64,000 nucleotides of DNA from Candidatus Bathyarchaeota archaeon (GCA_963775685.1 CAVZJV010000014.1:384001-448000), one strand, 5' to 3'. Positions 17,500 through 32,239 are shown, counted from the stretch's first letter. Notes: generated by a model from the letters alone, not told the origin. Program-made: numbers and translations.

Positions 17500-18057
17500 C
17501 TAATTAAAAACGTCGTTAGCTGCCTTAGCATAGACTTCAAAGTCTCTCTGAGAGAACAATACAAATGTGACCTTCTCTATTCTGTCTTCTTTCTCCAAAA
17601 ACGTCTTAACCGTAGCTAAAGCTATGTGGCTGGCTTCATCAATTGGGTATCTATACGCTCCGGTACTGATCGATGGAAACGCAATTGTTTTAAGTCCTTT
17701 AGAAACGGAAAGTTTCAATGTATTCCTATATGCTTGTTTTAGAAGTTCTGCCTCAACATGTAAGCCGCCAAGCCAAACAGGGCCAACCGTGTGAATAACA
17801 TGTTTAGCCTTCAAATTCCCGCCTGAGGTGATGACTGCTTTTCCAGTAGGCAATCCATCAGGCCACTCCGTTTCCCGTATACGTTTGCATTCTTCAAGAA
17901 TTTTAGGTCCTCCCTTCAGGTGTATCGCTCCGTCTACTCCTCCGCCTCCTAAAAGGGTCGAGTTAGCCGCATTCACAATGGCGTCAGCTTTAACGTCTGT
18001 AATGTCACCAACGATTAGCCGCAGAATAGCTTCTCCGACTTTAAATTCCATAAACAA
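17500..18057 (-). CDS. macrodomain O-acetyl-ADP-ribose deacetylase
   Basis: GDIT..DAIVNAANSTLLGGGGVDGAIH; AFPSISTGAY. Confidence 0.95.
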   Translation of the reverse strand: MFMEFKVGEAILRLIVGDITDVKADAIVNAANSTLLGGGGVDGAIHLKGGPKILEECKRIRETEWPDGLPTGKAVITSGGNLKAKHVIHTVGPVWLGGLHVEAELLKQAYRNTLKLSVSKGLKTIAFPSISTGAYRYPIDEASHIALATVKTFLEKEDRIEKVTFVLFSQRDFEVYAKAANDVFN

Positions 18058-18270
18058 ATGTTACCTTGTAAGCATATATAACTTTGACATACAAGTAACT
18101 AGAAACGATTCGCCCTTCCAACTTTATTTCACTTTTTCCTAACTACGTACTGACGCTGAAAATTCCGATTCAAAAAAAAACAATATCAATAAAACAAGTC
18201 ATGAGATTTCTGCAAAAAACTTATTTCTTTTTTCAGACAAATATTCCATTAAACCTTTTGTTAAAATGGA

Positions 18271-18909
18271 TTAAATTCCTGTCCAAAGGGTCCACAATGC
18301 TGAACTCATGAAGTATCCACCAAATCCGATGAACACCGTCACACAGAAAAATGTAATTACCATATTTACCCTCTCTGTCCAGAACTTCTGAGACTTAAAA
18401 ATCAATAAAGCCACCCCAGTGTACCATGAGAAATCTGTTAGCCAATGCACCCCTGCGAAAACAGAAAAACCCAGTAGCCCAAACAGTTTAGCATTCAAAA
18501 TGAGTGTAGTACCGATGGTCAGCCACCAAAGTATGAAACCGGCATTTGCAGCCGTTGTCCATGCACCTGCAAGCACAGAATCTCGTTTAAAACTCACAGA
18601 TGTAGCTTCTTGTTTGTGTCTGTTGTGAAAAGCTTGTAATCCCATTAGAATCATGAGCAAACCACCAATCAAACCGACTGCAATTTGCACAACACTTGGT
18701 ATGTCAAATTGACTAAGCAGAAAGAAAATCAGAAACATTAATGGAAACTCTACAATACCATGACCGACTGCGATCAGCGCACCCGCTGTCTTGCTTTTCG
18801 CAGATTTTTTCAGGGTAACAGCGAACAATGGTCCAGGCAACAGAACACCTGAAAGCGAAATTAGCAGAACTGAAGCTAAGAACAAGTAGAAACCTGTAAT
18901 GTACTCCAT
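18271..18909 (-). CDS. LysE family translocator
   Basis: SLSGVLLPGPL..GHGIVE..WW. Confidence 0.85.
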   Translation of the reverse strand: MEYITGFYLFLASVLLISLSGVLLPGPLFAVTLKKSAKSKTAGALIAVGHGIVEFPLMFLIFFLLSQFDIPSVVQIAVGLIGGLLMILMGLQAFHNRHKQEATSVSFKRDSVLAGAWTTAANAGFILWWLTIGTTLILNAKLFGLLGFSVFAGVHWLTDFSWYTGVALLIFKSQKFWTERVNMVITFFCVTVFIGFGGYFMSSALWTLWTGI

Positions 18910-18976
18910 GCTTCAGGTCTTCCTATACCTTTTTGAGTAAATTTTGCATGGTCGGCAATAAGCGTTTTTGGATCCT

Positions 18977-19001
18977 GTATACAAAAGCATCAACAAACAC
19001 A
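18977..19001 (+). repeat. dispersed repeat motif A, copy 1 (diverged)
   Basis: GTATACAAAAGCATCAACAAACACA. Confidence 0.75.
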
Positions 19002-19003
19002 TC

Positions 19004-19561
19004 TTATTCGCATTTTTTGCTCTTAAGAAGCCTATTTTGCATTTCAACGATACCAGCGCTATCTTTAGCGGTCACGTAATTGTCCAGCAACATGCCATTA
19101 AGCTCAAGGAAGGTGTGTCCCCAAGTAAAAATCGACAACAGCTGCGCTGCCTCCTCTTCAAAACCAGCAATATACAATGCGGCAGCGATCGCTTCAGCTG
19201 TAGTTAACTTGGTAAGCTTGCCAAAATTCACCGGGTTACCCGCAATCAGAATGGGCAAGCAACGGCTCGTACCTCTAACATGTACACCCATAACCTTTTG
19301 GGCGTGTTCCCAACTGCAATCCAAAGCAGCTAAACCAAAATGCTCAATCCGCTCCCTGTCTGCGGGGGAAAAAGCAATTTCACTAAAAGGGTTCAGCACT
19401 ATTGCCCGATTCGGTAAAAACCTTATCCGCGTGACTATCCTGGCAAATCCTCTACGTTTCAGCCTCAAGGCAGTGTTTTTTTTAGGGTCATCTTGGGCGG
19501 CATGGTAAATCGTAATCCTTACAGGCAAACTTGTTTTTACGGCTTCCTTATCAGTTTCCAC
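19004..19561 (-). CDS. tsr3: rRNA aminocarboxypropyltransferase Tsr3 (DUF367)
   Basis: QDDPKKNT, LDCSW, R.LP.LIAGNPVNFGKL..LTTAEA, FTWGHTFLELN. Confidence 0.92.
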   Translation of the reverse strand: METDKEAVKTSLPVRITIYHAAQDDPKKNTALRLKRRGFARIVTRIRFLPNRAIVLNPFSEIAFSPADRERIEHFGLAALDCSWEHAQKVMGVHVRGTSRCLPILIAGNPVNFGKLTKLTTAEAIAAALYIAGFEEEAAQLLSIFTWGHTFLELNGMLLDNYVTAKDSAGIVEMQNRLLKSKKCE

Positions 19562-21092
19562 TTGTTTTGCGCACCTTCAAATGGCTCATTGGGTCATCAA
19601 GAATCCTGGGAACCCACTCAATTATGTCCGTAGCAACCATGTGAAAACCAATCTCAGATGCAACAAAATCACCTGCAGCACCGTTAACAAACGCTCCAGC
19701 CACTGCAGCCTCAAACGCATTAACTTTCTGAGACATAAAGCCACCAACTATTCCACTGAGAACATCACCTGTTCCGCCAACGGTCATTCCTGGATTGCCC
19801 GTAAAATTCAGCTTCAAACGCTCAGCATCGCATATCACGTCAACTTTGCTCTTCACCAAAACAGTAGCATTTAGTCTTTTGGCAGTTTTCTGAATTGCAA
19901 CAATTCGTTCTTCTTGGTTTTCAGGCAACTCTTCACCCGTTAATATGGTGAATTCGCCCACATGAGGTGTTAAAACAAGCGGCACTTTTAGCTGGCGTTT
20001 GAATTTGGCGAACGCTTTCAGTCCGTCCGCATCCAAAAGCAACGCTATTTTAGCTTTTTCAATTTCTTCCACACATGATTTAACAAATTTTGCAGTTTCA
20101 GGGTTCACACCCAAGCCCGGACCTATAACAACTGCATCAACCATGCCCAAGTAAGGTCTGAGGGTAACCATGTTTTGGAGGTTAAGGTTGTCACCCTCGA
20201 GTTTTATCGTTATCAAGTCAGGAGACATAGACGAAATCGCATAAGCCGTCTTTGCTGGAGCGGCAAGATAAACGATGTCTACGCCCGTTCGCAAGGCAGC
20301 CAACGAAACCAAAGTGGGAGCACCAGAGTAAACTTCGCTGCCGCCGATAACGAGTAGTCTTCCGAATTCTCCCTTGTGGGCTGTTGGGCTGCGTGGTTTA
20401 GTGGCAAGTAACACATCGCCTGGACCTACAAACCGTTCAATCTCTGATGGCAAACCTATGTCGACAACAGCAAGTTCGCCTACGTATTTCTTTGCTTTAT
20501 CCAGACCAGACTTTGCCTTATGGAATGTTATTGTAAGGTCTGCTTTTACAGCTGTACCTAACACTTCTCCAATGTCTGATTCGATTCCTGTAGGTACGTC
20601 AACAGCTATTTTGAAGCCGCTTAAGGAGTTGATGTAATCAACTGTCTTGGATATTGGAGGTTTTAGCTTTCCTTTTGTCCCTGTTCCAAGAAGGGCGTCA
20701 ATAACTATGCCAGCGGTCACTTTAGGGATAAGTGAACTATCCGTTACTTCAAGCAATGTGACCTTACCCTCAAGTGACTCAAGAATACCCCAGTTTCTGA
20801 ATGCAGCCTCATGGTTGATGTTGCGACTCTTGCCAACCAAAATCACTGTAACATCAAACCCTTCAGCTAAAAGATGCCTGGCAGCAACAAAGCCGTCGCC
20901 ACCGTTGCCGCCTAAACCACAGAAAATCACGGCTTTCTTGTTCTTCTGGAAGCGTGTGATGATTTCTTGAGCCACGCTTCGGCCAGCGTTCTCCATAAGT
21001 TGAAGTAGGCTAATACCGAAGTATTGTGCGTTGACTTCTAAAGCACGCATTTCTCGGCTAGTGATGTTGAGAGTTTTGTTTTTTGGCTGCAT
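19551..21092 (-). CDS. nnr: bifunctional NAD(P)H-hydrate epimerase/dehydratase
   Basis: LMENAG, GGNGGDG, DALLGTG, AHKGEFG, LTPHVGEF, GGTGDVLSG. Confidence 0.95.
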   Translation of the reverse strand: MQPKNKTLNITSREMRALEVNAQYFGISLLQLMENAGRSVAQEIITRFQKNKKAVIFCGLGGNGGDGFVAARHLLAEGFDVTVILVGKSRNINHEAAFRNWGILESLEGKVTLLEVTDSSLIPKVTAGIVIDALLGTGTKGKLKPPISKTVDYINSLSGFKIAVDVPTGIESDIGEVLGTAVKADLTITFHKAKSGLDKAKKYVGELAVVDIGLPSEIERFVGPGDVLLATKPRSPTAHKGEFGRLLVIGGSEVYSGAPTLVSLAALRTGVDIVYLAAPAKTAYAISSMSPDLITIKLEGDNLNLQNMVTLRPYLGMVDAVVIGPGLGVNPETAKFVKSCVEEIEKAKIALLLDADGLKAFAKFKRQLKVPLVLTPHVGEFTILTGEELPENQEERIVAIQKTAKRLNATVLVKSKVDVICDAERLKLNFTGNPGMTVGGTGDVLSGIVGGFMSQKVNAFEAAVAGAFVNGAAGDFVASEIGFHMVATDIIEWVPRILDDPMSHLKVRKTSGN

Positions 21093-21147
21093 ATTAACGC
21101 CTAGTTACTATTGTAACATGGTTAAAAGATAAGTATATCCTTGAGCG

Positions 21148-21174
21148 GTATACGAAAGCATCCCCCAAACACAC
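21148..21174 (+). repeat. dispersed repeat motif A, copy 2
   Basis: GTATACGAAAGCATCCCCCAAACACAC (identical to 29722..29748). Confidence 0.9.
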
Positions 21175-21223
21175 AAAATCTGCCTCTGATCCATACCGCA
21201 ATATTCAGAAATTTAAAAAAATT

Positions 21224-21252
21224 CGAAGTTAAACGAACCTTATATATTCATG
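21224..21252 (+). repeat. motif B, copy 1 (BRE/TATA-like)
   Basis: CGAAGTTAAACGAACCTTATATATTCATG. Confidence 0.75.
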
Positions 21253-21578
21253 GCAGCCATCTGAACTAAGTGGAGGAGTATACATACTTATAACTCCTCA
21301 ATACAACGATCTGTGAAGAAAATGTGGGCTACCTTTTGCGGTAAATCTCAAAAATCCTAAAATAATGGCCAACAATGACTATTTTTTGTGGGCAGCAAGG
21401 TATAGAAGCTATGCAGAAGGCAGATTTAGTTCCAAAACTCGACCACAGCGATTGTTCTATTCTGTTTATCCAAAACTTTGTTCTACTTGCGGTGGTTTGT
21501 TGTGTCTCTTTGATCCAATAGTTTGGCTTACAAATCAGAGTCTGAACGGTTTTAGGTTAATTTCCTTTTTGGTTCAGG

Positions 21579-21626
21579 CGGAAAAAAATCGAATGGTCAT
21601 TTTTTACATTATAAAGTTAAAAAACC
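21579..21626 (+). repeat. motif C, copy 1
   Basis: CGGAAAAAAATCGAATGGTCATTTTTTACATTATAAAGTTAAAAAACC; 43/48 identical to the reverse complement of 29952..29999. Confidence 0.85.
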
Positions 21627-21814
21627 CTTTAATTATATGATAAAAATTAATGATATAATTAAAAATGTCCCTTGTCTGGCTTGATTAAAGGGTTATAGAC
21701 GACGAAGGACAACAGTGTCAATTGCCCCAAAAATTGCATACCCTTAGATTTTTTAAAAAAATTTTTAAATTGGATTTTAGAAAACGCTTACTTATTTTTT
21801 GATCAAGCGCTCTT

Positions 21815-22045
21815 TAAATTGTCATGTCGGGAGATAAATATTGTTGAGGTGACAAGCAATTCGGAAACACGCCTATGTTCTCCGAAACGAATTCTTCTAT
21901 ATTATCCAAATCCTCAGTTGTTAACCTCGAAATACATCGTACTCACCGAAAACAATGTTTGCTTTGGGATTTCCTTGAACTCAATGAGTTTTTGGGCAAC
22001 TTCTCTTTCAATTCCAGAACCAACTTTAAAAAGGACATATAGCAT
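21815..22045 (-). pseudogene. Lrp/AsnC ligand-binding domain remnant
   Basis: MLYVLFKVGSGIEREVAQKLIEFKEI / ANIVFGEYDV / RLTTEDLDNIEEFVSE / LLVTSTIFIS in shifting frames. Confidence 0.7.
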
Positions 22046-22113
22046 CGCAAAAAAGTTTATCCATATCTTCAATCTTATTCTAATTCAGGTTCAGTAACTT
22101 CTGAAAGGAATCT

Positions 22114-22863
22114 ATGATTTTTAAAATGGTGACTTGTTTGAGTAAAAACTTTGTTGTAGTAAACTCTGATGCACTTTTAATAACCGACATACAGAAAGAT
22201 TTTCTGCCGGGCGGCGCTTTACCTATTGAAAACGGCGACGAAATTATCCCGGTTCTCAATGATTACATACGGCGTTTTCAGAATGCTAAAGCACATATTC
22301 TAGCGTCCAGAGATTGGCACCCTTCTAACCATATCTCTTTTAGGGCTCAAGGCGGTCCATGGACACCTCATTGTGTTCAAGAAACATCGGGAGCAAAATT
22401 TAGTCCAGATCTAAAACTGCCAGACCACACAGTAGTTATCTCGAAAGCAACTAACCCCGAACATGAAGCGTATTCTGCTTTTGACGGAACAAGCCTTGCT
22501 CATGATTTGCGCGCTATGGGAGCTAAACGCCTTTTTGTTGGTGGATTAGCAACCGATTATTGTGTCGTAAATACTGTTGTTGATGCTCGCAAACTTGGTT
22601 TTGAGGCTGTGGTTCTTATGGATGGAACGTTGGGTATTAATGCTGAGCCAGGTGATGTGGACAGAGCTCTTGAAACCATGCTTCAAAATGGTTCACAACA
22701 GGCAACAGCAGACGATTTTCCTGATGCCGTCGATGAACTCCCCCTGGACGAAGCTCGTCCTGACGCCTTAGAAGAAAAACCCCTACAAAAAGCTGAGGTC
22801 AAGAAAAAAGCTCGAATGCGACCTAAAGGATCGGCTAAACGGATTCGAACTGAGCGAGGGTAA
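22114..22863 (+). CDS. pncA: nicotinamidase/pyrazinamidase (isochorismatase family) with charged C-terminal tail
   Basis: DIQKDFLPGGAL, SRDWHP..H.SF, W.PHCVQ, EAYSAF, GLATDYCV. Confidence 0.9.
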   Translation: MIFKMVTCLSKNFVVVNSDALLITDIQKDFLPGGALPIENGDEIIPVLNDYIRRFQNAKAHILASRDWHPSNHISFRAQGGPWTPHCVQETSGAKFSPDLKLPDHTVVISKATNPEHEAYSAFDGTSLAHDLRAMGAKRLFVGGLATDYCVVNTVVDARKLGFEAVVLMDGTLGINAEPGDVDRALETMLQNGSQQATADDFPDAVDELPLDEARPDALEEKPLQKAEVKKKARMRPKGSAKRIRTERG

Positions 22864-22869
22864 CTACTC

Positions 22870-22898
22870 CGAAAAGTGACGAACCTTATATAGTCATG
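22870..22898 (+). repeat. motif B, copy 2
   Basis: CGAAAAGTGACGAACCTTATATAGTCATG. Confidence 0.7.
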
Positions 22899-23221
22899 AA
22901 AATTTGTGCTTGAGAAAAAAGCCGAAAGCCCTTTGCAGAATTTACTTATACTTTTTTTCTCCTCTTGCTTAAAGCTGTGTGGCATGTCCAGTTTTTTTGT
23001 TAGTTAAGTCGTTAAAACTTGGCTCATTTCGCTGTCGCATAGTGCTAAACGCACGAGCAAGTTTTGAATAGTTTTCCGGGGTCTCTTTTTTTGCAACTAC
23101 TTAGTCAATTTGTTTTTTTTTGATTGCTTATTGAGCGTTTTTTCAGGTTAAGGATGGTATCTAATGCAGTCATCTTGGAATTGGCTCCTTTCTTTCCTCA
23201 ATTAATTTGTTGTGGTTTCTG

Positions 23222-23269
23222 CGAAAATTATTCGAATGGAAACTTTTTACAATAAATAGTAAAAATGCC
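23222..23269 (+). repeat. motif C, copy 2
   Basis: CGAAAATTATTCGAATGGAAACTTTTTACAATAAATAGTAAAAATGCC; 38/48 identical to copy 3, ungapped. Confidence 0.75.
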
Positions 23270-23412
23270 GCTTAAGATGTTGAAAGTTTATATATAAATA
23301 GTTAATTTTCAACGTTGACTACGTTATTTTTCCAATAAGAGAAGCGAACAACGGCAACTTCTTCAACGTGAAGTTGACTGAAAACGTTTATCAATGAATT
23401 TAACGAGTAACC

Positions 23413-23829
23413 TTACGTCTCGCCCAGAATCTGAATAATAATAGTTCTTTCTCTAGGATAAACATCAGTTTCAACAAAAAGCAGCGACTGCCACGTTCCC
23501 AAAACAACCCGTCCATTAATAATCGGCAGAGTCTTGTCCGGCGGGAGAAGCATGGAACGCAGATGCGAATGTGCATTAGAAGGGTGCTGGTATTTCCCGT
23601 TTTTTGGAGCCATCTTTTCAAGAAAAACTTTGATGTCGTTGAGTAAGGCATCATCATTTTCTGTTAAAATAATAATGCCTGTGGCATGGGGCGAGAAGAT
23701 GTGGACTATGCCGTTTTTGATTTCTGATAGGGAAACTTCTTCCGTGATCTTGTCGGTTAAGTCAATGAATTCTATTTCTCCTTGTGTAGTGAACCTGTAA
23801 GTTTTGTTTAAAACCTTAAAGTTTTGCAA
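23413..23829 (-). CDS. YjbQ/UPF0047 family protein
   Basis: HATGI..EN..L..D..YQH..NAHSHL..LGTWQ. Confidence 0.9.
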   Translation of the reverse strand: MQNFKVLNKTYRFTTQGEIEFIDLTDKITEEVSLSEIKNGIVHIFSPHATGIIILTENDDALLNDIKVFLEKMAPKNGKYQHPSNAHSHLRSMLLPPDKTLPIINGRVVLGTWQSLLFVETDVYPRERTIIIQILGET

Positions 23830-23893
23830 TTCCAGCTATCCTCATGTTTTATCTGTTTTTTTGGTTGAAAAAGGTTTCGAGTTTGCCTAAAAG

Positions 23894-23921
23894 CTGTGGT
23901 TTGGGGGATGCTTTTGTATAC
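23894..23921 (-). repeat. dispersed repeat motif A, copy 3
   Basis: Reverse complement GTATACAAAAGCATCCCCCAAACCACAG. Confidence 0.9.
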
Positions 23922-25769
23922 GAGCCACAGGTTTTCTTGGCACGATAAAGGCTTTTTAGTTGATCTCCTATTCACGATGTTGCTAAAATTATTTCACTGA
24001 TTCCTGTGAGGCTACTTCTGATTTAAGTTGAAACATCTAAAACACAAAAACAAACAGACCAAAAAGAATGATGCTTTAAGGTACAGAAAACCTCAAGTTT
24101 CCGCCATAATTACCATTGAACACTTTCCAACTTTAGAGACGATAGCAGCTAAAGTCTTAAACAGACGAGTGAAAGTCCAACCTCTCAGAAAAAACGCTAT
24201 TGTAGTAGTTGAAGCTCTACGTGGCTTATCGGGAAAGTGAGAAATTCTATCTTTTGTCACACCTTTTTAGAATATTTGGGGGTTTTTTGAACCTTTCGTT
24301 GTGTTGGTTGTCCGTCATGATGTCATTTTTAATGCAATATATTTGTCACAAATCACGCAGGAGGATGTTTTTTTAATCAACTAGACGTGACAAAATTGTT
24401 TGGTTTAGGATAAGGTTAGTTTATCAAAAGTAATATCAAAACTTGCCCAAAAGGAAATTTCATATCCTGCTAACGCCACCCTCTATTCTGGCTAACTTAT
24501 AACGTTTAAGCTCCCAAACGCTCAAATCAAACTTGAACTCTTGATGCATAGCATGACGGTTTCAAGAGACACTTGAACTATCTATAATCCTTCCCTAAGT
24601 TATAAGACGCAACACTCTTCGTTAAAGAAAGAAATAAAAATGTTTTCCAGACGAGAGAAGTTAAAAATTAAATGCCACATTTAGGCAACCATCCAGGCTA
24701 TCTTTTAGTTGTCTGGCCTCTAAATACACCACCAGCCAAAGAACAAAAATATGTAGGTTACAGTTGACAAGGGGCAGTGTGATTATGTCCCCCATCCTTC
24801 TGAGAAAACATTTTGTTTGCCTGCCTGCTGAGGTATTCTCTTTCGATGAGAGAGCGAGTTTTCTAAAGCAAACATTTCTTAGGGGAACAGCTGGTTTTGT
24901 TTAATTCAAAATCATATTTCAAAGCACAGGTTAAAAATTTTTGTATCTTCTTAAATTTGAAATAATTTCGAGATCCTAAAAACAACGACTATTCGTTGAC
25001 CTTTTTTTATCAAAATAGTATATTATTAAGCTTGTTTTAAATTTATTTAAGAGAGGCGCCTTTGTTTAGGTTCGAAAAGCGCTATATACAAAAACCAGCG
25101 ATTTTTTTCTATGGAAACCATAATCTAATCAGCCTATTTGAAGCTAAAATTCAAAAATAACCCCGATTACGCCTTAATCGCATTCACCTCAACAGGTTGG
25201 CATGGACATTACCGGAGCCTCATATAAGTACCTCTGAAAATCTCCATGCGAAGCAAACACCGGTTTTTTCGGCTATCCTTCGAGGGTAAACTCTGTTTTT
25301 TTGACAATTTAGCAAACTTTTACAATTTTAGCTCATATTTCTTTTTTCAGAAATATTTTGTCAGGTGTCGGTAATTTTTTGTCACTTTGTTTTTGTTTTG
25401 TGGTGTTAACTTTTAAGCTTCAGGTTCTTTGATTTGGATCCTTTTGTTTATGCCTTGTGCAGTTGGTGTTTGATTTTGTATGATCCATTTTGCAGTGGGA
25501 ACGCTAAAAGTTTCTATTTTGCAAACGGTGCTTCTTTTCAGCATGAGGTTTTGGGGTTGCAAGCCGATTTTTTGGTGTCTAAGGACCGCTTTTTTTCTGT
25601 CTCTTTTGAGTCAACACTGATATTTCAAGCGCTTATGGTAGTCTAAATAGCGGATATTTCAGTCATGTTAATGTTGAAAAAGGCGTAATCGGTGGCTTTG
25701 GTTGTATTGGTAATACTCATGATTCCTACATTTACCAGCATGCACCAGTCACACCAGCCTAAACTAGCT

Positions 25770-25796
25770 GTATACAAAAGCATCCCCAAACCACAG
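25770..25796 (+). repeat. dispersed repeat motif A, copy 4
   Basis: GTATACAAAAGCATCCCCAAACCACAG. Confidence 0.9.
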
Positions 25797-25865
25797 TTTT
25801 CGGGTTCTCCTAAAGAACAATTTTTATCCCAAGACACCGATAATAGGCATCTTAGAGAAGGGAAA

Positions 25866-26306
25866 TTGTTGACTACAGAGATTGACCGAATCAAACTTAG
25901 GCGATGGCGCAAAAGAGGGTTCTACAGTGAAACTGTCTTAGTCAAACTCCTGCAGAAAAAAGGCTACAACGCCGTACGTGTCCCCGTCAGCAATCCAAGC
26001 CTCAACCCCCTGCCAGACCTCATGGCTCGAAAAGGCAAACACGTCTACGCTTTTGAAGTAAAAAACGCCAGCTACTACGCCTACTTTCCCAAGCCCCAAA
26101 TCGACAAACTCTTCCAGTTCCTCGTCCAATTCATCCCCACAGGCAACGAAAACAAACACGCCATCGTAGCCGCACATCTGGGTAAACGGTGGCTGTTCAA
26201 GGAAATCAGCTGGAACGACTGGGAAAAAAATAAGCTCCCCGACAAAGTACGAATCCTAAAACGCGACCGAGGAAACTTTAACATCGACACCAGCTACCAA
26301 CAATAG
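25866..26306 (+). CDS. Hjc-like archaeal Holliday junction resolvase / PD-(D/E)xK nuclease
   Basis: RGFYSE..LVKLL..GY.AVRVP.S....LPDLMA..VYAFEVK; start uncertain (ORF track extends to 25692 through motif A). Confidence 0.75.
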   Translation: MLTTEIDRIKLRRWRKRGFYSETVLVKLLQKKGYNAVRVPVSNPSLNPLPDLMARKGKHVYAFEVKNASYYAYFPKPQIDKLFQFLVQFIPTGNENKHAIVAAHLGKRWLFKEISWNDWEKNKLPDKVRILKRDRGNFNIDTSYQQ

Positions 26307-26399
26307 CAGTAAACGAATGTACCTCAAGCTTATTATTACTTTGAAGCTGCTTCAAGCTAACCTAACATTGAGGTAAAGAGCAGGAAGGCTGAGCAAAAG

Positions 26400-27048
26400 C
26401 CATAGTTGTTTCAACACAAGGCATAACCAAAGCTTTCCAAGTCGGCGACAGAAAAATCACCGTCCTAAAAGACATAAACATACAGATTCACAGAGCCAAC
26501 TTTACCGTTATATGTGGGCCGTCAGGCTCAGGAAAAACCACTTTACTCAACATCATAGGTGGAATTGATCGACCTACAAAGGAAAAATCTTTGTTGCAGG
26601 GAAACCTTGACGGATAAAAATGAGAATTTTCTCTCTGATTTTCGCTGTAATCATGTTGGTTTTGTTTTTCAAGCGTACAATTTGGTTTCAACGCTAACGG
26701 TTGAGGAGAACGTTGCTTTTCCTATGGAGAGAACCCGAAAACCGCCTGCAGAAATTGCTAAAAGAGTCGCTGAGCTTCTAAAAACAATAGGGGTTAGAAC
26801 ATCGAGCACACCATTTCTCAGCGCAATTAAGCGGTGGCGAGCAACAACGGGTCGCTTTCGCTAGGGCTTTAGCTAACTACCCTGAGGTGATTTTGGCAGA
26901 TGAACCCACAGGTAATCTGGATCTGAAGAAGCTCTAAAAATTCTCCAGGTGTTCCAACTCTTGAAGACAAATGGAAAAACTGTCATTGTTTCTACTCAAG
27001 ACTTGCAGATCAGGGAGACTTAGCGGACCAAGTTTTATGCTTAGATGA
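26400..27048 (+). pseudogene. decayed ABC transporter ATP-binding gene
   Basis: [36 protein letters not shown] split over several frames with stops. Confidence 0.85.
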
Positions 27049-27068
27049 GGGTAAATTGGCGGATAATT

Positions 27069-28936
27069 ATGAGTAGCGAATTGTTTTCCAATTAACGATT
27101 TGATTAGGCGAAGGCTGCAAACAAGCTTAACAATCATCACTTTAACGTTAAGTATTGCTTCAACATTGTTTCTTTTGTTGTTTAGTACTCGTTTAGTGGT
27201 GGGTATTGCATCTGCATCGGGTACTCTAACATTGGGGTTAAATATGGTCTTTAGCCAATTTATCCTATTCATCGCGTCCTGATTTTTGTGATTGGCGCCG
27301 TATTGACAGCGTTTATTTTTTTTGATGTTCTCTCAGAGGACCCATGATTTTGGTCTAATAAAAGCGGCTGGATGCCCAAATAGCCTGTTGCAGGATACTT
27401 TATGACAGAACTCCTAACGGTAACTTTCGTCGGCTGCGTCTTAGGCATAATACTTGGTTTTTTTAATGGATTTTGCGGCAGCTCAGCTTATTTTTTCCGC
27501 CTATATTTTACCGAATTTCAGGTTTGCGCCCTTAGTTTTGTTGTCTTTATTATTCTTTCAATTTTTTTGGTTTGAGGCCTATCTTTAAAGCAGCTAATAT
27601 GTCAGCTATAGATGCGCTTTCACCAGTATATTATTACGGTTTAACATGCGAAAGTAAACATAAGCCGCTGTCAAGGAGAGCGATAACTTGGCGTATTGCT
27701 CTACGAAGCCTATACCGGCGTCAATCAGCAAGCCTGCGCAATGTTTTTTTGTTGCCAATGGTATTTATTTTATTGACAGTTTCGATTGCAGGTGGAACAA
27801 TCGCGAGCGACACCACAATTTCATCGATTGAAACCCCCCGTTGGTAAAGACACCATTGCAATTTCTCAAAGCACAATGATAAATGAATACAAAACACAGC
27901 TGTTGAAGTTCTCAAAAACCCAAGAATACCGTATTTAACTATTCAGACCCTCATTTGGCCTTTCCGCAAGCACTTATTCAACAACTTAAAAAGATAAATG
28001 CAGTTGAGACGGTTGATCCAAGGTTGGTTTTAGTGGAAGCTGTTCGGGAAATTCTAGGCTTCGAATTAGGGCAAGACAGTTCCCAGACGCAGTTTGTCGG
28101 TGGCCATCGCCAAGGTCAATCCCTTGTAGTAGGCATAAATCCGGCTGATTCTATTAGTTCCTGGTCGCTAAAAGGAAGATTTTTAAGCAATAGTTCCACC
28201 GCGGAAGCATTGTTGGAAATTCAATTGCTAACACAATGTACGCGAGAGACCCAAAAAATAAGGTCAGCTAGCTGAATCCCTTGTAGGAAGGCATTGGACT
28301 TGAAAATGTAACTTTCAAAATTGTTGGGGTATGTGTTGATCCTCTAAATAATGGTTATGTCGCCTAGTTCCCATCGAGAAAATGCAAAATGCAACGGGGT
28401 TACATGAAGATAATTTGTTGCTTGTTAAACTCAACGATTCCAGTACCCGCAATTCTGCTATTGACGCAATAAAAAGCGTAGTTCAAGCATCTGGTTGCGA
28501 TTTAGAAGTGTTCGATTTAAGCGCAGTAGTTGACCAGAATACAGTTTTTCTATCTTTGACGTGGCAAACTATTATGTTGCTGCCGATTTTTACTTTGGTA
28601 TTTGCTGCTATTTGTCTAGTGGGTTTTATGGTGTTATCGGTGGATGAAACAGCATCAAAAATTCGCCATATTACGTACTATAGGCGCTAAACCGGCCATA
28701 ATTATCAATATTTCAGCGATTCAAAGTGCAATTGTGTTTTTTCCAGTTTTGCATTGGGCATTTCGTTGGGTGTAATCACAACTTTGCTTATTTTGATGAC
28801 AGCCCCTCTAGTTAAGAGCTTCACTGTTGTGAAAATAGCTGTTTGGTTACTCGCCGCCTTGATTGGAATGTTCCTCTTTAGCCTTTACTTGACGTTTAGG
28901 CTTGCTAAACCTTCAATCCTTAAAATTATGACTTAA
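27069..28936 (+). pseudogene. decayed FtsX/MacB-like ABC permease
   Basis: Five or more fragments (27100, 27572, 27955, 28382, 28754) with permease-like TM segments and in-frame stops. Confidence 0.75.
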
Positions 28937-29627
28937 GGGTTTTGAATGTTTTGGAGAAAAACTTTAGCGTTTCTGTGTATGCTGGCAGTTGGCATATGAA
29001 GTCTTGGAGCTGGAGGACGGGTACTACGGGTACTTTTTGATAGAATTTGTAGTCGCTGGGAATTAGGGAGAGTACGGCTGGCATGAACTTTGCTTTTTCC
29101 CATTTGACACACTCAAGTTTTGTGTTGATGCTGGGTAACGAATCGGCCAACGCTCGGGCTCTTTGCGTTTGCAGGTCAACAATCTTTCTTAGAGCTGATG
29201 GTGAGATTGCCCTTTGCCAATGCTTGCAGTCGATGCAGATGACTATGGGTTTTTTGCAACCCACCACGTCGATTTCCCATCTTTTTGGCCCATTTTTGAA
29301 CCGAAAGTTTTTTTGTACTACGTAGCCGTTTTTTTTTAGTGCTATGGCTGCGATTTCTTCAAACTCTTGCCAGCAAAGCAAATCGCTGATGTGTTCGATG
29401 TCTGCACCTAAAGATGCTGCTTTGATGGCTAGTTTAAGTCTACTACTGCTATCTATTTCTACGGTGTAAGTTTTCAAATAAATGAGGTTTTCATTTTGCA
29501 GTTTTTCCAGCAACTTCCACGTAATAACTGAAGGTATCTTTGCGTCTCTATTGACACTTTCAATTAAAACAGGTTCCTCTTTTGTTAGTTTTAGAAGAGA
29601 AATTATGAGATTTCTTTCAACAATCAT
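28926..29627 (-). CDS. restriction endonuclease-like protein (Mrr/NERD-type) with N-terminal wHTH-like region
   Basis: WQEFEE..GY..EIDVVG..ICIDCKHW PD-(D/E)xK signature. Confidence 0.8.
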   Translation of the reverse strand: MIVERNLIISLLKLTKEEPVLIESVNRDAKIPSVITWKLLEKLQNENLIYLKTYTVEIDSSSRLKLAIKAASLGADIEHISDLLCWQEFEEIAAIALKKNGYVVQKNFRFKNGPKRWEIDVVGCKKPIVICIDCKHWQRAISPSALRKIVDLQTQRARALADSLPSINTKLECVKWEKAKFMPAVLSLIPSDYKFYQKVPVVPVLQLQDFICQLPAYTETLKFFSKTFKTLKS

Positions 29628-29721
29628 AGTTGACCCTCAGAGAAGTTGACATGTAACTAGCAAAAAACAGCCAAATTGAGCGTTTGTTTGAGCTTTCACC
29701 TAAACTGAATGCTGGAAAGCC

Positions 29722-29748
29722 GTATACGAAAGCATCCCCCAAACACAC
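29722..29748 (+). repeat. dispersed repeat motif A, copy 5
   Basis: GTATACGAAAGCATCCCCCAAACACAC. Confidence 0.9.
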
Positions 29749-29951
29749 TTCTTCCGAGCGCATCAGCTATCAAGACTTCTCCCAAATGGCCTTATCATTC
29801 GATTTTTCGTTATCTATGACTGCCCGATGAAATAACCTTTGTGTTAATTAGGAAACTAAAAAGTCATCATCTTCGCTAATCGCAGCCTCAAAAATCGGCT
29901 ATAATATGGTCATATAGACATGTTCCAGCTATTTTTTTAAAATGGACAAAT

Positions 29952-29999
29952 GGTTGTTTAACTATTTAATGTAAAAAATGACCATTCGATTATTTTTCG
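29952..29999 (-). repeat. motif C, copy 3
   Basis: Reverse complement CGAAAAATAATCGAATGGTCATTTTTTACATTAAATAGTTAAACAACC. Confidence 0.85.
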
Positions 30000-30343
30000 A
30001 ACAGGTAACTGTCTTTTTAGTTGAAAACAGAAGAAGCCTGACTAAAGAAAACGATAAAGGCTCAGGAAAACTAAGTTGAAAATGCAGATTTGAAAATACA
30101 ATCAACAGATTTCATCGTCATCAAAGACAAAATCTTGTAATTCAGAGATCTTTTTAGTACTACCGCTCGTTATTTTGTATTTTTTGTTTTTGCGAAGTGC
30201 CTAATAGGTCTTATAAGGGCTATTCTTGGTTAAATTATGTTTTCTTTACTTGCTGAACTGGGTGTGAAAGAAACGCTTTCTCAAAAATGATCATTCTTAT
30301 TGTTTGGTCAGGGTTGATTTTCGTTTGTCAGGATTAGACGTAG

Positions 30344-30373
30344 CATGAATATATAAGGTTCGGTTAAGTTTCG
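30344..30373 (-). repeat. motif B, copy 3
   Basis: Reverse complement CGAAACTTAACCGAACCTTATATATTCATG. Confidence 0.75.
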
Positions 30374-30413
30374 GTGGTTGATCCTGTTTTAAGAACTTTT
30401 TTGGTAGAAAAAA

Positions 30414-30440
30414 GTTTGTTTTGGCGATGCTTTCGTATAC
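30414..30440 (-). repeat. dispersed repeat motif A, copy 6
   Basis: Reverse complement GTATACGAAAGCATCGCCAAAACAAAC. Confidence 0.85.
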
Positions 30441-30509
30441 AAAAACGAATTTGTGGCAAAAAGACCATCTTTAAATATTAAAGGATGGTTAGCCAGAATA
30501 GGTATTCTA

Positions 30510-31529
30510 ATGTCCCAAATGAAAGCGATCCAAGTCAATGGACCCGGGCAAGACTTTGTGCTGGTTCAAAAGGAAATTCCTCAACCAAAAGAACACGAGG
30601 TTCTCCTTAAAGTTGAAGCCTGCGGAATCTGCCATGGTGACGCCATCGCCAAGTACGGAGGGTTCCCCGGTTTATCTTATCCGAGAACACCTGGCCATGA
30701 GGTTGTTGGAACAATAGCCAAATTAGGCTCGAAATCGCATCACTGGAATGTTGGGCAAAGAGTTGGGGTGGGTTGGCGTGGAGGTCACTGTCTTAAGTGT
30801 AAGGCCTGCCTTAAAGGCGACTATTGGGCGTGTGAAAGTCCCTTAGCAACAGGCATTTCAACCGACGGCGGATACGCCGAATACATGATTGCTCGTATGG
30901 ACGTGCTAACCGCTATCCCCGATGAGCTTACTTCCGTTGAAGCAGCGCCGCTTCTTTGTGCAGGTGCAACAACTTTAGGTGCAATTAAAAATAGTGCTGT
31001 AAAAGGCGGAGACTTGGTTGCAATTCAAGGATTAGGGGGGCTAGGGCACTTGGCACTGCAGTTCGCTGTAAAATTTGGTTTGAAGACCGCTGTTGTTTCC
31101 CGTGGCAAAGAAAAAGAGGCGCTCGCCCACAAGCTTGGAGCCAACTTTTACATATATGCTCAAACTTCTAACGTAAGCCAAGAACTAATAAAACTTGACG
31201 GTGCGAAAGCTATTTTCTGTACTGCACCCAACAGTAAAGCCATCGGAGAGCTAGTGGATGGGCTTGCCTGCAATGGGCAATTAATCATCGTTACCTTCGT
31301 TAATGAGCCAATGCAAATTTCTCCGTCTCAACTAATGCGGGCTGTACGATCTGTTAGCGGTTGGGTCGGAGGAAACACCGACGACGCACTAAGCTTTAGC
31401 GTTTTTGCACACGTTGTTCCAATGGTAGAAGTTTTCCCGCTTGAGCAAGCCGCTATCGCTTTTGACCGCATGATGACTGCCAAGGTTCATTTTAGGGCAG
31501 TTCTAAAAATGATGGATGAATTAAAATGA
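30510..31529 (+). CDS. zinc-dependent alcohol dehydrogenase
   Basis: ACGICHGD, PGHEVVG, CxxCxxC..C, GLGGLG. Confidence 0.93.
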   Translation: MSQMKAIQVNGPGQDFVLVQKEIPQPKEHEVLLKVEACGICHGDAIAKYGGFPGLSYPRTPGHEVVGTIAKLGSKSHHWNVGQRVGVGWRGGHCLKCKACLKGDYWACESPLATGISTDGGYAEYMIARMDVLTAIPDELTSVEAAPLLCAGATTLGAIKNSAVKGGDLVAIQGLGGLGHLALQFAVKFGLKTAVVSRGKEKEALAHKLGANFYIYAQTSNVSQELIKLDGAKAIFCTAPNSKAIGELVDGLACNGQLIIVTFVNEPMQISPSQLMRAVRSVSGWVGGNTDDALSFSVFAHVVPMVEVFPLEQAAIAFDRMMTAKVHFRAVLKMMDELK

Positions 31530-32239
31530 ACGAAGTTATTAGAATAATTCAAGAGAGACAATCAGCAAGGGTACCCTTTGATCCGAATCGAAAAGTATCT
31601 AAACAAAACCTTCAACAAATTTTGGAGGCAGCCCGATGGACACCTACAGCTCACAACATGCAAAACTTTGAGGTAGTGGTCGTTGATGACTTTGAGGTTT
31701 TAGGGATAATTGGATCTGTGAAATCCTGTATTTCAGAGGTCTTTCTTAGGGAAAATTATGAGCAGCTTTCATTCTCAAAGGAAGAGTTGATTAAAAAGAA
31801 AACAGGCATTTTAGGCTCCACGTTTCCTCAGGCGTGGGTGGATCCTTCTAAAATGGCGGAAGCCGCCCGTGATAGTATGCCTATGCCGATGACCCAGTCA
31901 ATTCGCGGAAGTCCTTGCCTATTGATTGTGGTTTACGACCCTCGGAAGAGGGCGCCTGCATCTGAAGGAGACGTTTTGGGATTCATAAGTATAGGCTGTG
32001 TCATGGAGAACATGTGGCTAATGGCTCAATCCTTAGGAATTAGCTTACAGATTCTGAGTTCTTTTGCCGCGCCACCAGTAGAGGAACAAGTAAAGAAGAT
32101 ATTGGGCATTCCTGAACCGTTAAAGATCGCATACACCTGCCGCTTAGGTTATCCAACAGGGGCGTCCAAGTATCTCAGGGTACGCAGGGAGATAGCAGAT
32201 TTTGCCCATTATAACAAGTTTGGAAACAAAGGCAAATAG
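31526..32239 (+). CDS. nitroreductase family protein
   Basis: RQSAR..ILEAARWTPTAHNMQ..ENMWLMA..LGYP. Confidence 0.9.
   Translation: MNEVIRIIQERQSARVPFDPNRKVSKQNLQQILEAARWTPTAHNMQNFEVVVVDDFEVLGIIGSVKSCISEVFLRENYEQLSFSKEELIKKKTGILGSTFPQAWVDPSKMAEAARDSMPMPMTQSIRGSPCLLIVVYDPRKRAPASEGDVLGFISIGCVMENMWLMAQSLGISLQILSSFAAPPVEEQVKKILGIPEPLKIAYTCRLGYPTGASKYLRVRREIADFAHYNKFGNKGK

Follow-up and report, generated by a model that had tools for sequence, protein, structure and literature searches.

Three non-coding cassettes of a common layout lie in an unusually gene-poor island on the chromosome of a Bathy-6-type Bathyarchaeia archaeon, and they are real, lineage-specific and conserved in soil Bathyarchaeia. 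The stretch analysed here (the window) covers 64,000 nucleotides (nt) of a genome of 3,059,888 bases in 14 contigs (GCA_963775685.1; contig CAVZJV010000014.1 is called C14 below, and the window is C14:384001-448000); positions are counted from its first letter unless C14 is named. Each cassette opens with a promoter-like box (motif B), closes with an A/T-tract box (motif C) and encloses an interior free of coding or structural constraint, and a third motif, box A, precedes B in two of the three. The modules look like short non-coding cassettes for transcription control or insulation, not like genes for a defined RNA or protein. From the motifs, their pairing and their conservation we infer promoter activity, termination and regulator binding, and we propose tentatively, with somewhat less than even confidence, that short transcripts free of sequence constraint start at a regulated promoter and run into a zone of bidirectional termination with C at its end, an arrangement which would insulate the neighbouring genes.

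Motifs B and C are paired and confined to one island

Motif B was searched for by its 19-nt core, CGAACCTTATATAKTCATG, with up to three mismatches allowed and 100 shuffles as a control. The core was matched at 21234-21252 (+), 22880-22898 (+) and 30344-30362 (-) and at no other place in the window, with 0 matches expected from the shuffles; in the whole genome these three places, all in the island, were again the only ones. Once the upstream CGAA is counted, they are the same sites that an earlier note, made from the sequence, had placed at 21224 (+), 22870 (+) and 30373 (-). The core of motif C, TCGAATGG-N4-TTTTTACA, was matched without mismatches at 21589 (+), 23232 (+) and 29989 (-) against an expectation of 0.12. 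The three C copies described at 21579, 23222 and 29999 were thus found with an exact core in each, and a hand recount of their alignment returned the identities to copy 3 given before (43/48 and 38/48). With up to two mismatches, C has seven matches in the whole genome; those that are exact and paired with B number three, all in the island. Independent occurrence of B and C across the genome, which would have spoken against a module, was not what we observed: there are three copies of each, always paired, in the island only. The parts of the three cassettes are as follows.

21224..21252, + strand: B1, a TTCGAA-N6-CGAA dyad, then CC-TTATATAT (TATA-like, with a B recognition element, BRE) and TCATG
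21253..21578, + strand: interior of unit 1, unconstrained spacer, with TACTTATA flanked by an inverted repeat at about 21280-21310
21579..21626, + strand: C1, CGAA-N7-TCGAATGG, N4, T6, ACA and TAAAnAGTTAAAA, at a local G+C (GC) minimum of 0.29
22870..22898, + strand: B2, 7 nt past the stop codon of the pncA-like gene, without box A
22899..23221, + strand: interior of unit 2, with many T7 runs
23222..23269, + strand: C2, between unit 2 and the convergent UPF0047 gene (23413-23829, -)
29952..29999, - strand: C3, a match to the C core
30000..30343, - strand: interior of unit 3, between C3 and B3
30344..30373, - strand: B3, a match to the B core

The B-to-C distances of 355, 352 and 374 nt proved correct. 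For a wider census we combined the window with 67 loci fetched around the gene for an Hjc-like nuclease, and these 68 related loci hold 153 B-to-C units. The conserved spacing proposed earlier holds inside this genome but not across the census, where the distance ranges from 101 to 440 nt with a bimodal distribution and a median of 354 nt; the idea of a payload of fixed length is not supported. When stricter patterns were applied to the 68 loci, 99 of 113 C copies had a B 100-700 nt upstream. The order and orientation of the parts are the same in relatives, which upholds the module as a conserved entity, and the order A-B-...-C recurs in 13 syntenic loci of the genus. A 601-nt query covering unit 1 from A through C matched 16 of the 18 other genomes of the same genus, where only the A/B and C ends align, but had no match in 12 genomes drawn from 11 further families in the order. 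Of 13 loci in other genera, 9 have a match to B beside the UPF0047 gene, together with C in four and alone in five. Because a short B-C unit or a B match adjoins UPF0047 in these loci, unit 2 is, to judge by this distribution, the ancestral copy. The relatives retrieved by means of the Hjc-like protein are metagenome-assembled genomes of Candidatus Bathyarchaeota/Bathyarchaeia and Candidatus Bathycorpusculum, which places the organism among the Bathy-6-type Bathyarchaeia. The segment 20500-24000, compared with sequencing runs, was found in three soil DNA runs, with a small share in each, and in no RNA run.

Motif B resembles a strong archaeal promoter

The consensus of 150 B copies, ttttCGAAnnnnanCGAACCTTAtATAatCATg, has a purine-rich CGAA immediately 5' of a TATA-like octamer and a second (T)TCGAA one helical turn further up. 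The CGAA-CC-TTATATAT part of B is close to the boxes upstream of the host's own stable-RNA genes, namely those for tRNA-Phe (GAAACCTTTAAAATA), tRNA-Ser (GTAAACATTTAAG), tRNA-Val and the signal recognition particle (SRP) RNA (GGAAAGTTTTAAAG). The earlier description of B as BRE/TATA-like agrees well with this: a TATA box of about 8 bp adjoins a purine-rich BRE, much as in the tRNA and SRP RNA promoters of this genome. B is most simply read as a putative strong archaeal BRE/TATA promoter.

Box A lies upstream of B and of several genes

Box A, defined by the pattern GTATACRAAAGCATC(CCCCAAAC), has six copies in the window, at 18977 (+), 21148 (+), 23907 (-), 25770 (+), 29722 (+) and 30426 (-), where 0.09 is expected from shuffles. 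The A-to-B offsets of 76 and 67 nt were correct as first given, and the box is commoner in the island than the two B-linked copies noticed at that time. Its copies are listed here.

18977..19003, + strand: copy 1, between the Tsr3 and LysE-type translocator genes
21148..21174, + strand: copy 2, 56 nt upstream of the start of nnr (opposite orientation) and 76 nt upstream of B1
23895..23921, - strand: copy 3, with the start of UPF0047 92 nt downstream
25770..25796, + strand: copy 4, 99 nt upstream of the start of the Hjc-like gene (25869)
29722..29748, + strand: copy 5, 95 nt before the start of the oppositely oriented Mrr/NERD-like gene, forming with copy 6 an inverted pair that brackets unit 3
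30414..30440, - strand: copy 6, with B3 67 nt downstream and the divergent Zn-ADH gene on its other side

The A-B spacing is tight (68-116 nt) in the 90 of 153 census units that have an A within 200 nt. Sampled across the family with up to one mismatch, box A was present in 108 of 121 genomes (61 of 70 genera), and the pattern read backwards, as a control, gave 0-2 matches per genome. The first base of 'forward' boxes lies 89-103 nt before the start codons of the UPF0047, Hjc-like, nth, gdh and MazG-like genes, and 'reverse' boxes lie 56-95 nt before those of the nnr, ADH, Mrr-like and LysE genes. This pattern reads like that of an upstream operator of divergent promoter pairs, to which a regulator would bind. 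Three further good copies are found outside the island (C14:1678662, C14:1831207 and C14:1865805), upstream of nth, gdh and the MazG-like gene, respectively; nth is followed by a peroxiredoxin-like gene, and these four names were read by eye from translations, without a family search. A stable box A regulon outside the island was considered and dropped, as only 2 of 25 orthologous loci have the copy before nth and the sites turn over.

Motif C combines a CGAA dyad with oligo-T on both strands

The C consensus, CGAAAantnnTCGAAtGgtnAtTTTTTACAnTAAAnAGTTAAAaaa, has the same dyad as B, here CGAA...TCGAA, and after it a T6 run that has A-tracts on both sides, so that oligo-T is present on both strands. 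The run is T6 in C1 and C3 and T5 in C2, and the bottom strand also carries T5-T6 runs. At all three copies GC drops to 0.29, compared with 0.42 for the genome. Archaeal RNA polymerase terminates at oligo-T tracts of about five or more. Having at least five T residues at the 3' end of the unit, C has the makings of an archaeal oligo-T terminator, and termination there is predicted.

The interiors drift freely and code for no recurrent product

An all-against-all blastn comparison of 33 interiors linked only seven of them, all close kin or paralogues. The flanking coding DNA is 77-83% identical to that of the closest relative (L038), except for the Hjc-like gene (93%), and blastn against this relative gave no match for the interiors or for a 1-kb stretch at 23931-24950. 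The conserved elements were kept at the same distance (B 82-96%, C 83-93%, the stretch from A to B about 82%, and elements E and P, described below, 74-82% and 69-78%). Since the coding DNA itself is only 77-83% identical to the closest relative, neutral sites should be saturated, and the absence of a match for the interiors at such a distance indicates that the variable payload is freely drifting spacer rather than swapped cargo or fast-evolving sequence.

The note had found no convincing open reading frames (ORFs) in the interiors, and we agree: there was no recurrent ORF of at least 30 amino acids (aa), by position or by frame, in 33 units, and the two longest local ORFs (91 and 100 aa) matched 0 Pfam families. 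The same results bear on the possibility that the interiors are remnants of protein genes with a duplicated promoter, the other outcome named in advance as fatal to the module. The island does hold an apparently decayed ABC-ATPase/FtsX-permease pair, yet the units are non-coding in all relatives examined, other genera included, and with no recurrent ORF and no Pfam family for the longest ORFs we consider gene remnants a very remote explanation.

Another proposal was that B and C form the cis-acting skeleton of a mobile element or cassette array, with B and C as the ends and the interior as exchanged cargo. It would accommodate the presence or absence of units between species and the extra unit upstream of UPF0047, which in two relatives is a clear duplicate of unit 3. 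However, B is neither complementary to C nor an inverted repeat of it, no target duplication was seen, the 3.06-Mb genome has no copies outside the island, and no recombinase gene lies within it. The interiors share only chance 15-17-mers with the rest of the genome, the interior of unit 1 (the only one compared) had no match in phage records, and the divergence of the interiors is accounted for by neutral saturation. A mobile skeleton is thus hardly credible.

The interiors are rich in homopolymer runs with a polar distribution. In the B-proximal half lie 245 of 278 runs of five or more A (A5+), and in the C-proximal half 279 of 438 T5+ runs. The first T5+ run on the sense strand is met at 0.33 of the interior, compared with 0.66 in shuffles, which puts it at a median of 70 nt from the expected transcript start. 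Given that oligo-T terminates the archaeal polymerase, polymerase arriving from either side should stop inside the block, and transcripts from B should mostly be short.

These data also weigh on the promoter-driven non-coding RNA of about 300 nt that had been suggested for the units, if it is taken as a discrete, structured RNA. Single-sequence folding of 33 units gave a mean z of -0.22. Rfam searches of the island, at the gathering cut-off and, over 18500-30800, at E<=5, returned nothing relevant, and in the loci of three relatives at E<=0.1 only tRNAs were found; the RNase P and SRP RNA genes lie elsewhere, outside the island. With T5+ runs beginning so early as well, this suggestion is not supported in its original form. 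A modified version would make the cassettes functional small RNA genes with a free body and a working, conserved 3' end, GCGAAAAAUAAUCGAAUGGUCA-U6, which has a short hairpin (UUCGA/UCGAA) and might serve in protein binding or as a seed. The unit does lie between promoter-like B and the T6 run of C, the sequence directly 5' of this run is conserved, and in copies 2 and 3 the dyad of C can fold into a small hairpin ahead of the U-run (z of -3.06 and -1.30 relative to shuffles). Copy 1, however, has no such hairpin (z of +1.12), the stem is invariant and so offers no covariation, and conservation runs on past the T6, where a 3' end has no need of it. Few transcripts should reach C through the T5+ runs upstream of it, and complementarity to other loci does not go beyond chance 15-17-mers. 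We consider functional small RNA genes unlikely.

As to the first nucleotides of the interiors, copies 1 and 2 had both been said to open with an inverted repeat. This is right for copy 1 (GGAGGAGT..TACTTATA..ACTCCTC), but copy 2 has TACTTATA and CTCCTC without the left arm. The arrangement of GGAGGAGT, TACTTATA and ACTCCTC was not seen at the 5' ends of the relatives' units examined. In unit 1 (21280-21310), it is laid out like the palindrome of element E, in which GGAGA...TCTCC surrounds TACTTATATGA.

Two single-copy elements, P and E, accompany the cassettes

Between the cassettes lie two larger non-coding elements, each present in a single copy.

24971..25326, - strand: element E, about 350 nt, a CGAA dyad followed by GCATGGAGATTTTC..GG-TACTTATATGA-GG..TCCATGC (a palindrome around a TATA-like box)
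25558..25797, - strand: element P, about 240-300 nt, in relatives directly upstream of, and divergent from, the Hjc-like gene

The core of E consists of TCGCATGG-AGAT-TTTCGACAG followed by the TATA-like TTTTTATATGA, and a 15-20-15 palindrome (GCATGGAGATTTTCG ... CGATATTCTCCATGC) surrounds the TATA-like box; E reads as an operator-controlled promoter. P is rich in GGTGA/TCACC repeats and in GTAATAC. In relatives, P is enclosed by an inverted pair of A boxes 235-287 bp apart, and E comes next. Both elements occur throughout the family, with matches to E in 88 of 93 sources and matches to P of at least 60 bits in 80 of 93. RNAalifold found no consensus structure for either one (E, -2.0 kcal/mol in 78 sequences; P, -0.26 kcal/mol in 74 sequences), from which it follows that P and E are conserved at the DNA level or as unstructured RNA. 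Homology of the units to E was also considered and rejected, as nhmmer with an E profile finds E alone.

In other genera the cluster has the form UPF0047-GNAT <- A | P | A -> E -> LonB -> Hjc-like -> ABC -> FtsX <- Mrr-like, which is complete in 5 of 13 loci. Six more have the same genes and elements rearranged or without a GNAT match, some with one A box beyond the two-mismatch pattern; of the remaining loci, one (L115) is without an FtsX match and the other (L117) without matches to E, GNAT and UPF0047. E precedes lonB in these genera and is kept here though lonB is gone: the genome has no close LonB orthologue, its single match being a paralogue of 25% identity at C14:2.207 Mb, and tblastn detected no LonB remnant in the 2-kb non-coding stretch. 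The GNAT gene of the other-genus cluster likewise has no match in this genome.

A transcription-control and insulation model

In the model that we favour, B, which lies about 70-100 nt from box A in two of three copies, would act as a promoter under a putative regulator bound at box A. Transcripts from B would enter a drifting interior of 100-440 nt, oligo-A-rich in its first half and with oligo-T throughout, most of it in the second half, a composition that would stop archaeal RNA polymerase from either side. C, with oligo-T on both strands, would close the cassette, and the whole B-C block would insulate nnr, the pncA-like gene, UPF0047, the Mrr-like gene and Zn-ADH from read-through or convergent transcription.

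Several points speak against this model. The starts, ends and strand of the unit transcripts are all deduced. Since T5+ runs begin at a median of 70 nt, the stretch from B to C is probably not a single transcript. Not every species has unit 1, nor the extra unit upstream of UPF0047, and the units may thus be dispensable. Box A precedes nth in 2 of 25 orthologous loci, and the site is degenerate in a same-genus relative. Motif C is conserved well past the needs of a T-run terminator, and its core (TCGAATGG-N4-TTTTTACA-nTAAAnAG) is similar to the E core, TCGCATGG-AGAT-TTTCGACAG-TTTTTATATGA, around the TATA-like box. Moreover, conserved blocks 3' of C comprise a second TAAAnAGTTAAA-like (TATA-like) box, CCATG and a third dyad, ACGA-N4-CGAAG. 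C may thus serve as a promoter or as a platform or binding site for protein, in addition to termination or in place of it.

The points on C can be taken further, to two independent promoters in each unit, B and C, both behind the same CGAA-dyad operator, C being of the E type and directed either outward or, when read in reverse complement, into the unit itself. The module would in that case amount to two control regions with spacer in between. The element shared by C and the E core, TCG(A/C)ATGG-N4-TTTT..ACA followed by a TATA-like box, fits such a layout, as do the second TAAATAGTTAAA-like box and the third CGAA dyad 3' of C; the antisense strand is also freer of T5+ runs, the first being met at 0.71 of the interior as compared with 0.33 in sense. 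Yet the dyad of C, unlike that of B, is not adjacent to its TATA-like box, the downstream genes have closer promoter-like boxes (for instance AAAGTTTATCC upstream of the pncA-like gene in four relatives), and the C of unit 2 faces the 3' end of a convergent gene. Paired promoters appear improbable to us, and we keep to the model of a regulated promoter and a termination zone.

The island lies opposite the probable replication origin

Genes for Orc1/Cdc6 are located at 1,877 kb (cdc6-1) and 1,156 kb of C14, and the island at 403-414 kb. Upstream of cdc6-1 there are two ORB-like (origin recognition box) TCCAGTAGAA sites (C14:1875570 and C14:1876013, one of them followed by GGGG) and an AT-rich palindrome, so that oriC is likely to be here. 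In five closed genomes the distance from the island to cdc6-1 amounts to 0.509, 0.516, 0.477, 0.505 and 0.500 of the chromosome, and in a two-contig genome of another genus to about 0.49; the exception is a 75%-complete, single-contig genome of 0.9 Mb, in which the island is 102 kb from cdc6-1. In six of seven near-closed genomes the island thus lies about half a chromosome away from cdc6-1. The cumulative gene-orientation curve of the present genome is a simple triangle with its maximum at 435.7 kb, 22 kb from the island, and its minimum at 1,808 kb. Because genes converge there, about half a genome from cdc6-1, the data suggest that the island is in the replication terminus zone. The island or box A as a replication origin was rejected as a candidate, with cdc6 and the ORB-like sites at 1,877 kb and gene orientation converging at the island; box A is not needed as an origin box, since ORB-like sites adjoin cdc6-1.

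A region with such a position could be architectural DNA of the terminus, a nucleoprotein array that serves as a domain boundary, a roadblock to SMC or a polar fork barrier, transcription being incidental or auxiliary. The array would consist of the A/T-tract-rich interiors, the inward-pointing units and repeated boxes bound by protein (A, the CGAA dyads, P and E). Besides the position relative to cdc6-1, the peak and the bottom of the orientation curve near the island and near cdc6-1, and the canonical ORB-like sites elsewhere, this idea can draw on P and E, single-copy, family-wide and unstructured, and on the large non-coding share of the island (about 4.5 of 11.5 kb). There is also a precedent: in Thermococcus kodakarensis, an SMC/TrmBL2 boundary is directed by 1.9 kb of A-tract-rich intergenic DNA around dif, and it is the sequence itself rather than dif that does so (PMC11840125). 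In the island, A5+/T5+ runs are enriched and GC falls to 0.265-0.295, which may or may not answer to boundary DNA of this kind. Archaeal dif sites are reported to have conserved flanks and to lie near the terminus (PMC2958812).

The position, however, represents few events, most of the closed genomes being close kin, and the incomplete genome mentioned above does not conform to it. GC, AT, keto and purine skews are weak and irregular, and the local turn in gene orientation is broad (about 400-510 kb). The units do point toward P/E in 144 of 153 cases, an orientation that follows synteny and is not independent evidence. Neither P nor E has a conserved dif-like repeat, and the Thermococcus-type dif (ATATAA-N6-TTATAT) is absent from the island. 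No TrmBL2-type protein or TrmB regulator domain was found above the cut-off, the best PF11495 matches scoring 20.4 and 19.9 bits relative to 22.2. A role as architectural DNA is, on balance, decidedly unlikely. A Xer/dif site was rejected, too: a scan of 18800-30600 for 11-(5-8)-11 repeats gave only C pseudo-palindromes (three) and coding matches. The genome has 19 tyrosine-recombinase matches, among which XerA was not singled out.

In its widest form, the idea is that the whole 11.5-kb island would organise the terminus of the Bathy-6 chromosome and, as a boundary or polar barrier encoded in the sequence, mark where the two forks meet. Its parts may be the A boxes, the inward-pointing B-C cassettes, in whose interiors A-tracts are followed by T-tracts, and P and E beside the Hjc-like nuclease and the FtsEX-like ABC operon, and the barrier may be built from protein-bound boxes and head-on transcription units. 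We offer this as a long shot.

Genes around the cassettes

The following neighbours were named from a Pfam search of the window proteins.

17500-18057, - strand: Macro-domain protein
18271-18909, - strand: LysE-type translocator
19004-19561, - strand: Tsr3
19551-21092, - strand: NAD(P)HX epimerase/dehydratase (nnr)
22114-22863, + strand: isochorismatase family, pncA-like
23413-23829, - strand: UPF0047
25869-26306, + strand: Hjc-like nuclease
28926-29627, - strand: Mrr/NERD-like protein
30453-31529, + strand: Zn-ADH
31526-32239, + strand: nitroreductase

The ABC ATPase/FtsX permease pair (26400-28920) has several frameshifts and stops here, owing either to real decay or to a local assembly error, and is unbroken in most of the relatives examined. 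Genes of NAD/ADP-ribose housekeeping (Macro domain, NAD(P)HX repair, nicotinamidase-like isochorismatase) cluster around the cassettes at 17500-22863. Between C1 and the pncA-like gene, the segment 21788-22039 is kept at 70-74% over about 250 nt in three of five relatives compared, with short matches in the other two. It contains small ORFs of 52 aa (- strand) and 55 aa (+ strand) that belong to no Pfam family, and either a small gene or one more control region may lie here.

Discussion

Bathyarchaeia are abundant and almost entirely uncultured archaea, and we know of no mapped promoters, terminators or regulators in them, although no specific search was made. The cis-elements of the island are strongly conserved and comprise a consensus promoter, a composite A/T-tract box, an operator-like box of 27 nt and two larger elements in single copy; first experiments on transcription control in this group could build on them. 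If the cassettes do act through transcription or insulation, they would be an archaeal example of function without constraint on RNA sequence; if the terminus reading is true, the island would point to a sequence-encoded organisation of archaeal replication termination.

The ends of the cassettes have well-known counterparts. As in archaeal BRE/TATA promoters, the purine-rich CGAA of B stands directly before an 8-bp TATA-like box, and as in archaeal oligo-T termination, C and the interiors carry T5+ runs. Unlike an ordinary archaeal promoter and terminator, the cassettes have extra conserved boxes at both ends (TTCGAA/CGAA dyads, TCATG, and box A, whose offset is fixed), and the 'gene' between the ends is without constrained sequence. 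Non-coding transcription for interference or insulation is familiar from SRG1-SER3 in yeast and from bidirectional terminators in bacteria. To our knowledge, it has no archaeal precedent, though no targeted literature search was made. In systems of the SRG1-SER3 type, the promoter is conserved, the RNA sequence is irrelevant, and the function lies in the act or place of transcription; the same would apply to the cassettes.

We also know of no Ter/Tus-like or MatP-like system described in archaea, again without a targeted search of the literature. With archaeal ORB origins the island shares repeated inverted boxes of 20-30 nt, long intergenic DNA and family-wide occurrence, and box A has a GTATAC dyad and a C-run. 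It differs from them in that genes converge on it, in that its A boxes stand at gene starts along 11.5 kb, and in that ORB-like sites lie half a genome away, by cdc6-1. The closest parallel for the terminus reading is boundary 1 around dif in T. kodakarensis, which is a large A-tract-rich non-coding segment of terminus-region DNA between convergent genes (PMC11840125), as the island may be too. The present island, however, belongs to a different phylum, has no dif-like inverted repeat and no TrmBL2 above the cut-off, and is known from its sequence alone. In contrast to that boundary, it carries discrete conserved boxes and promoter-like elements.

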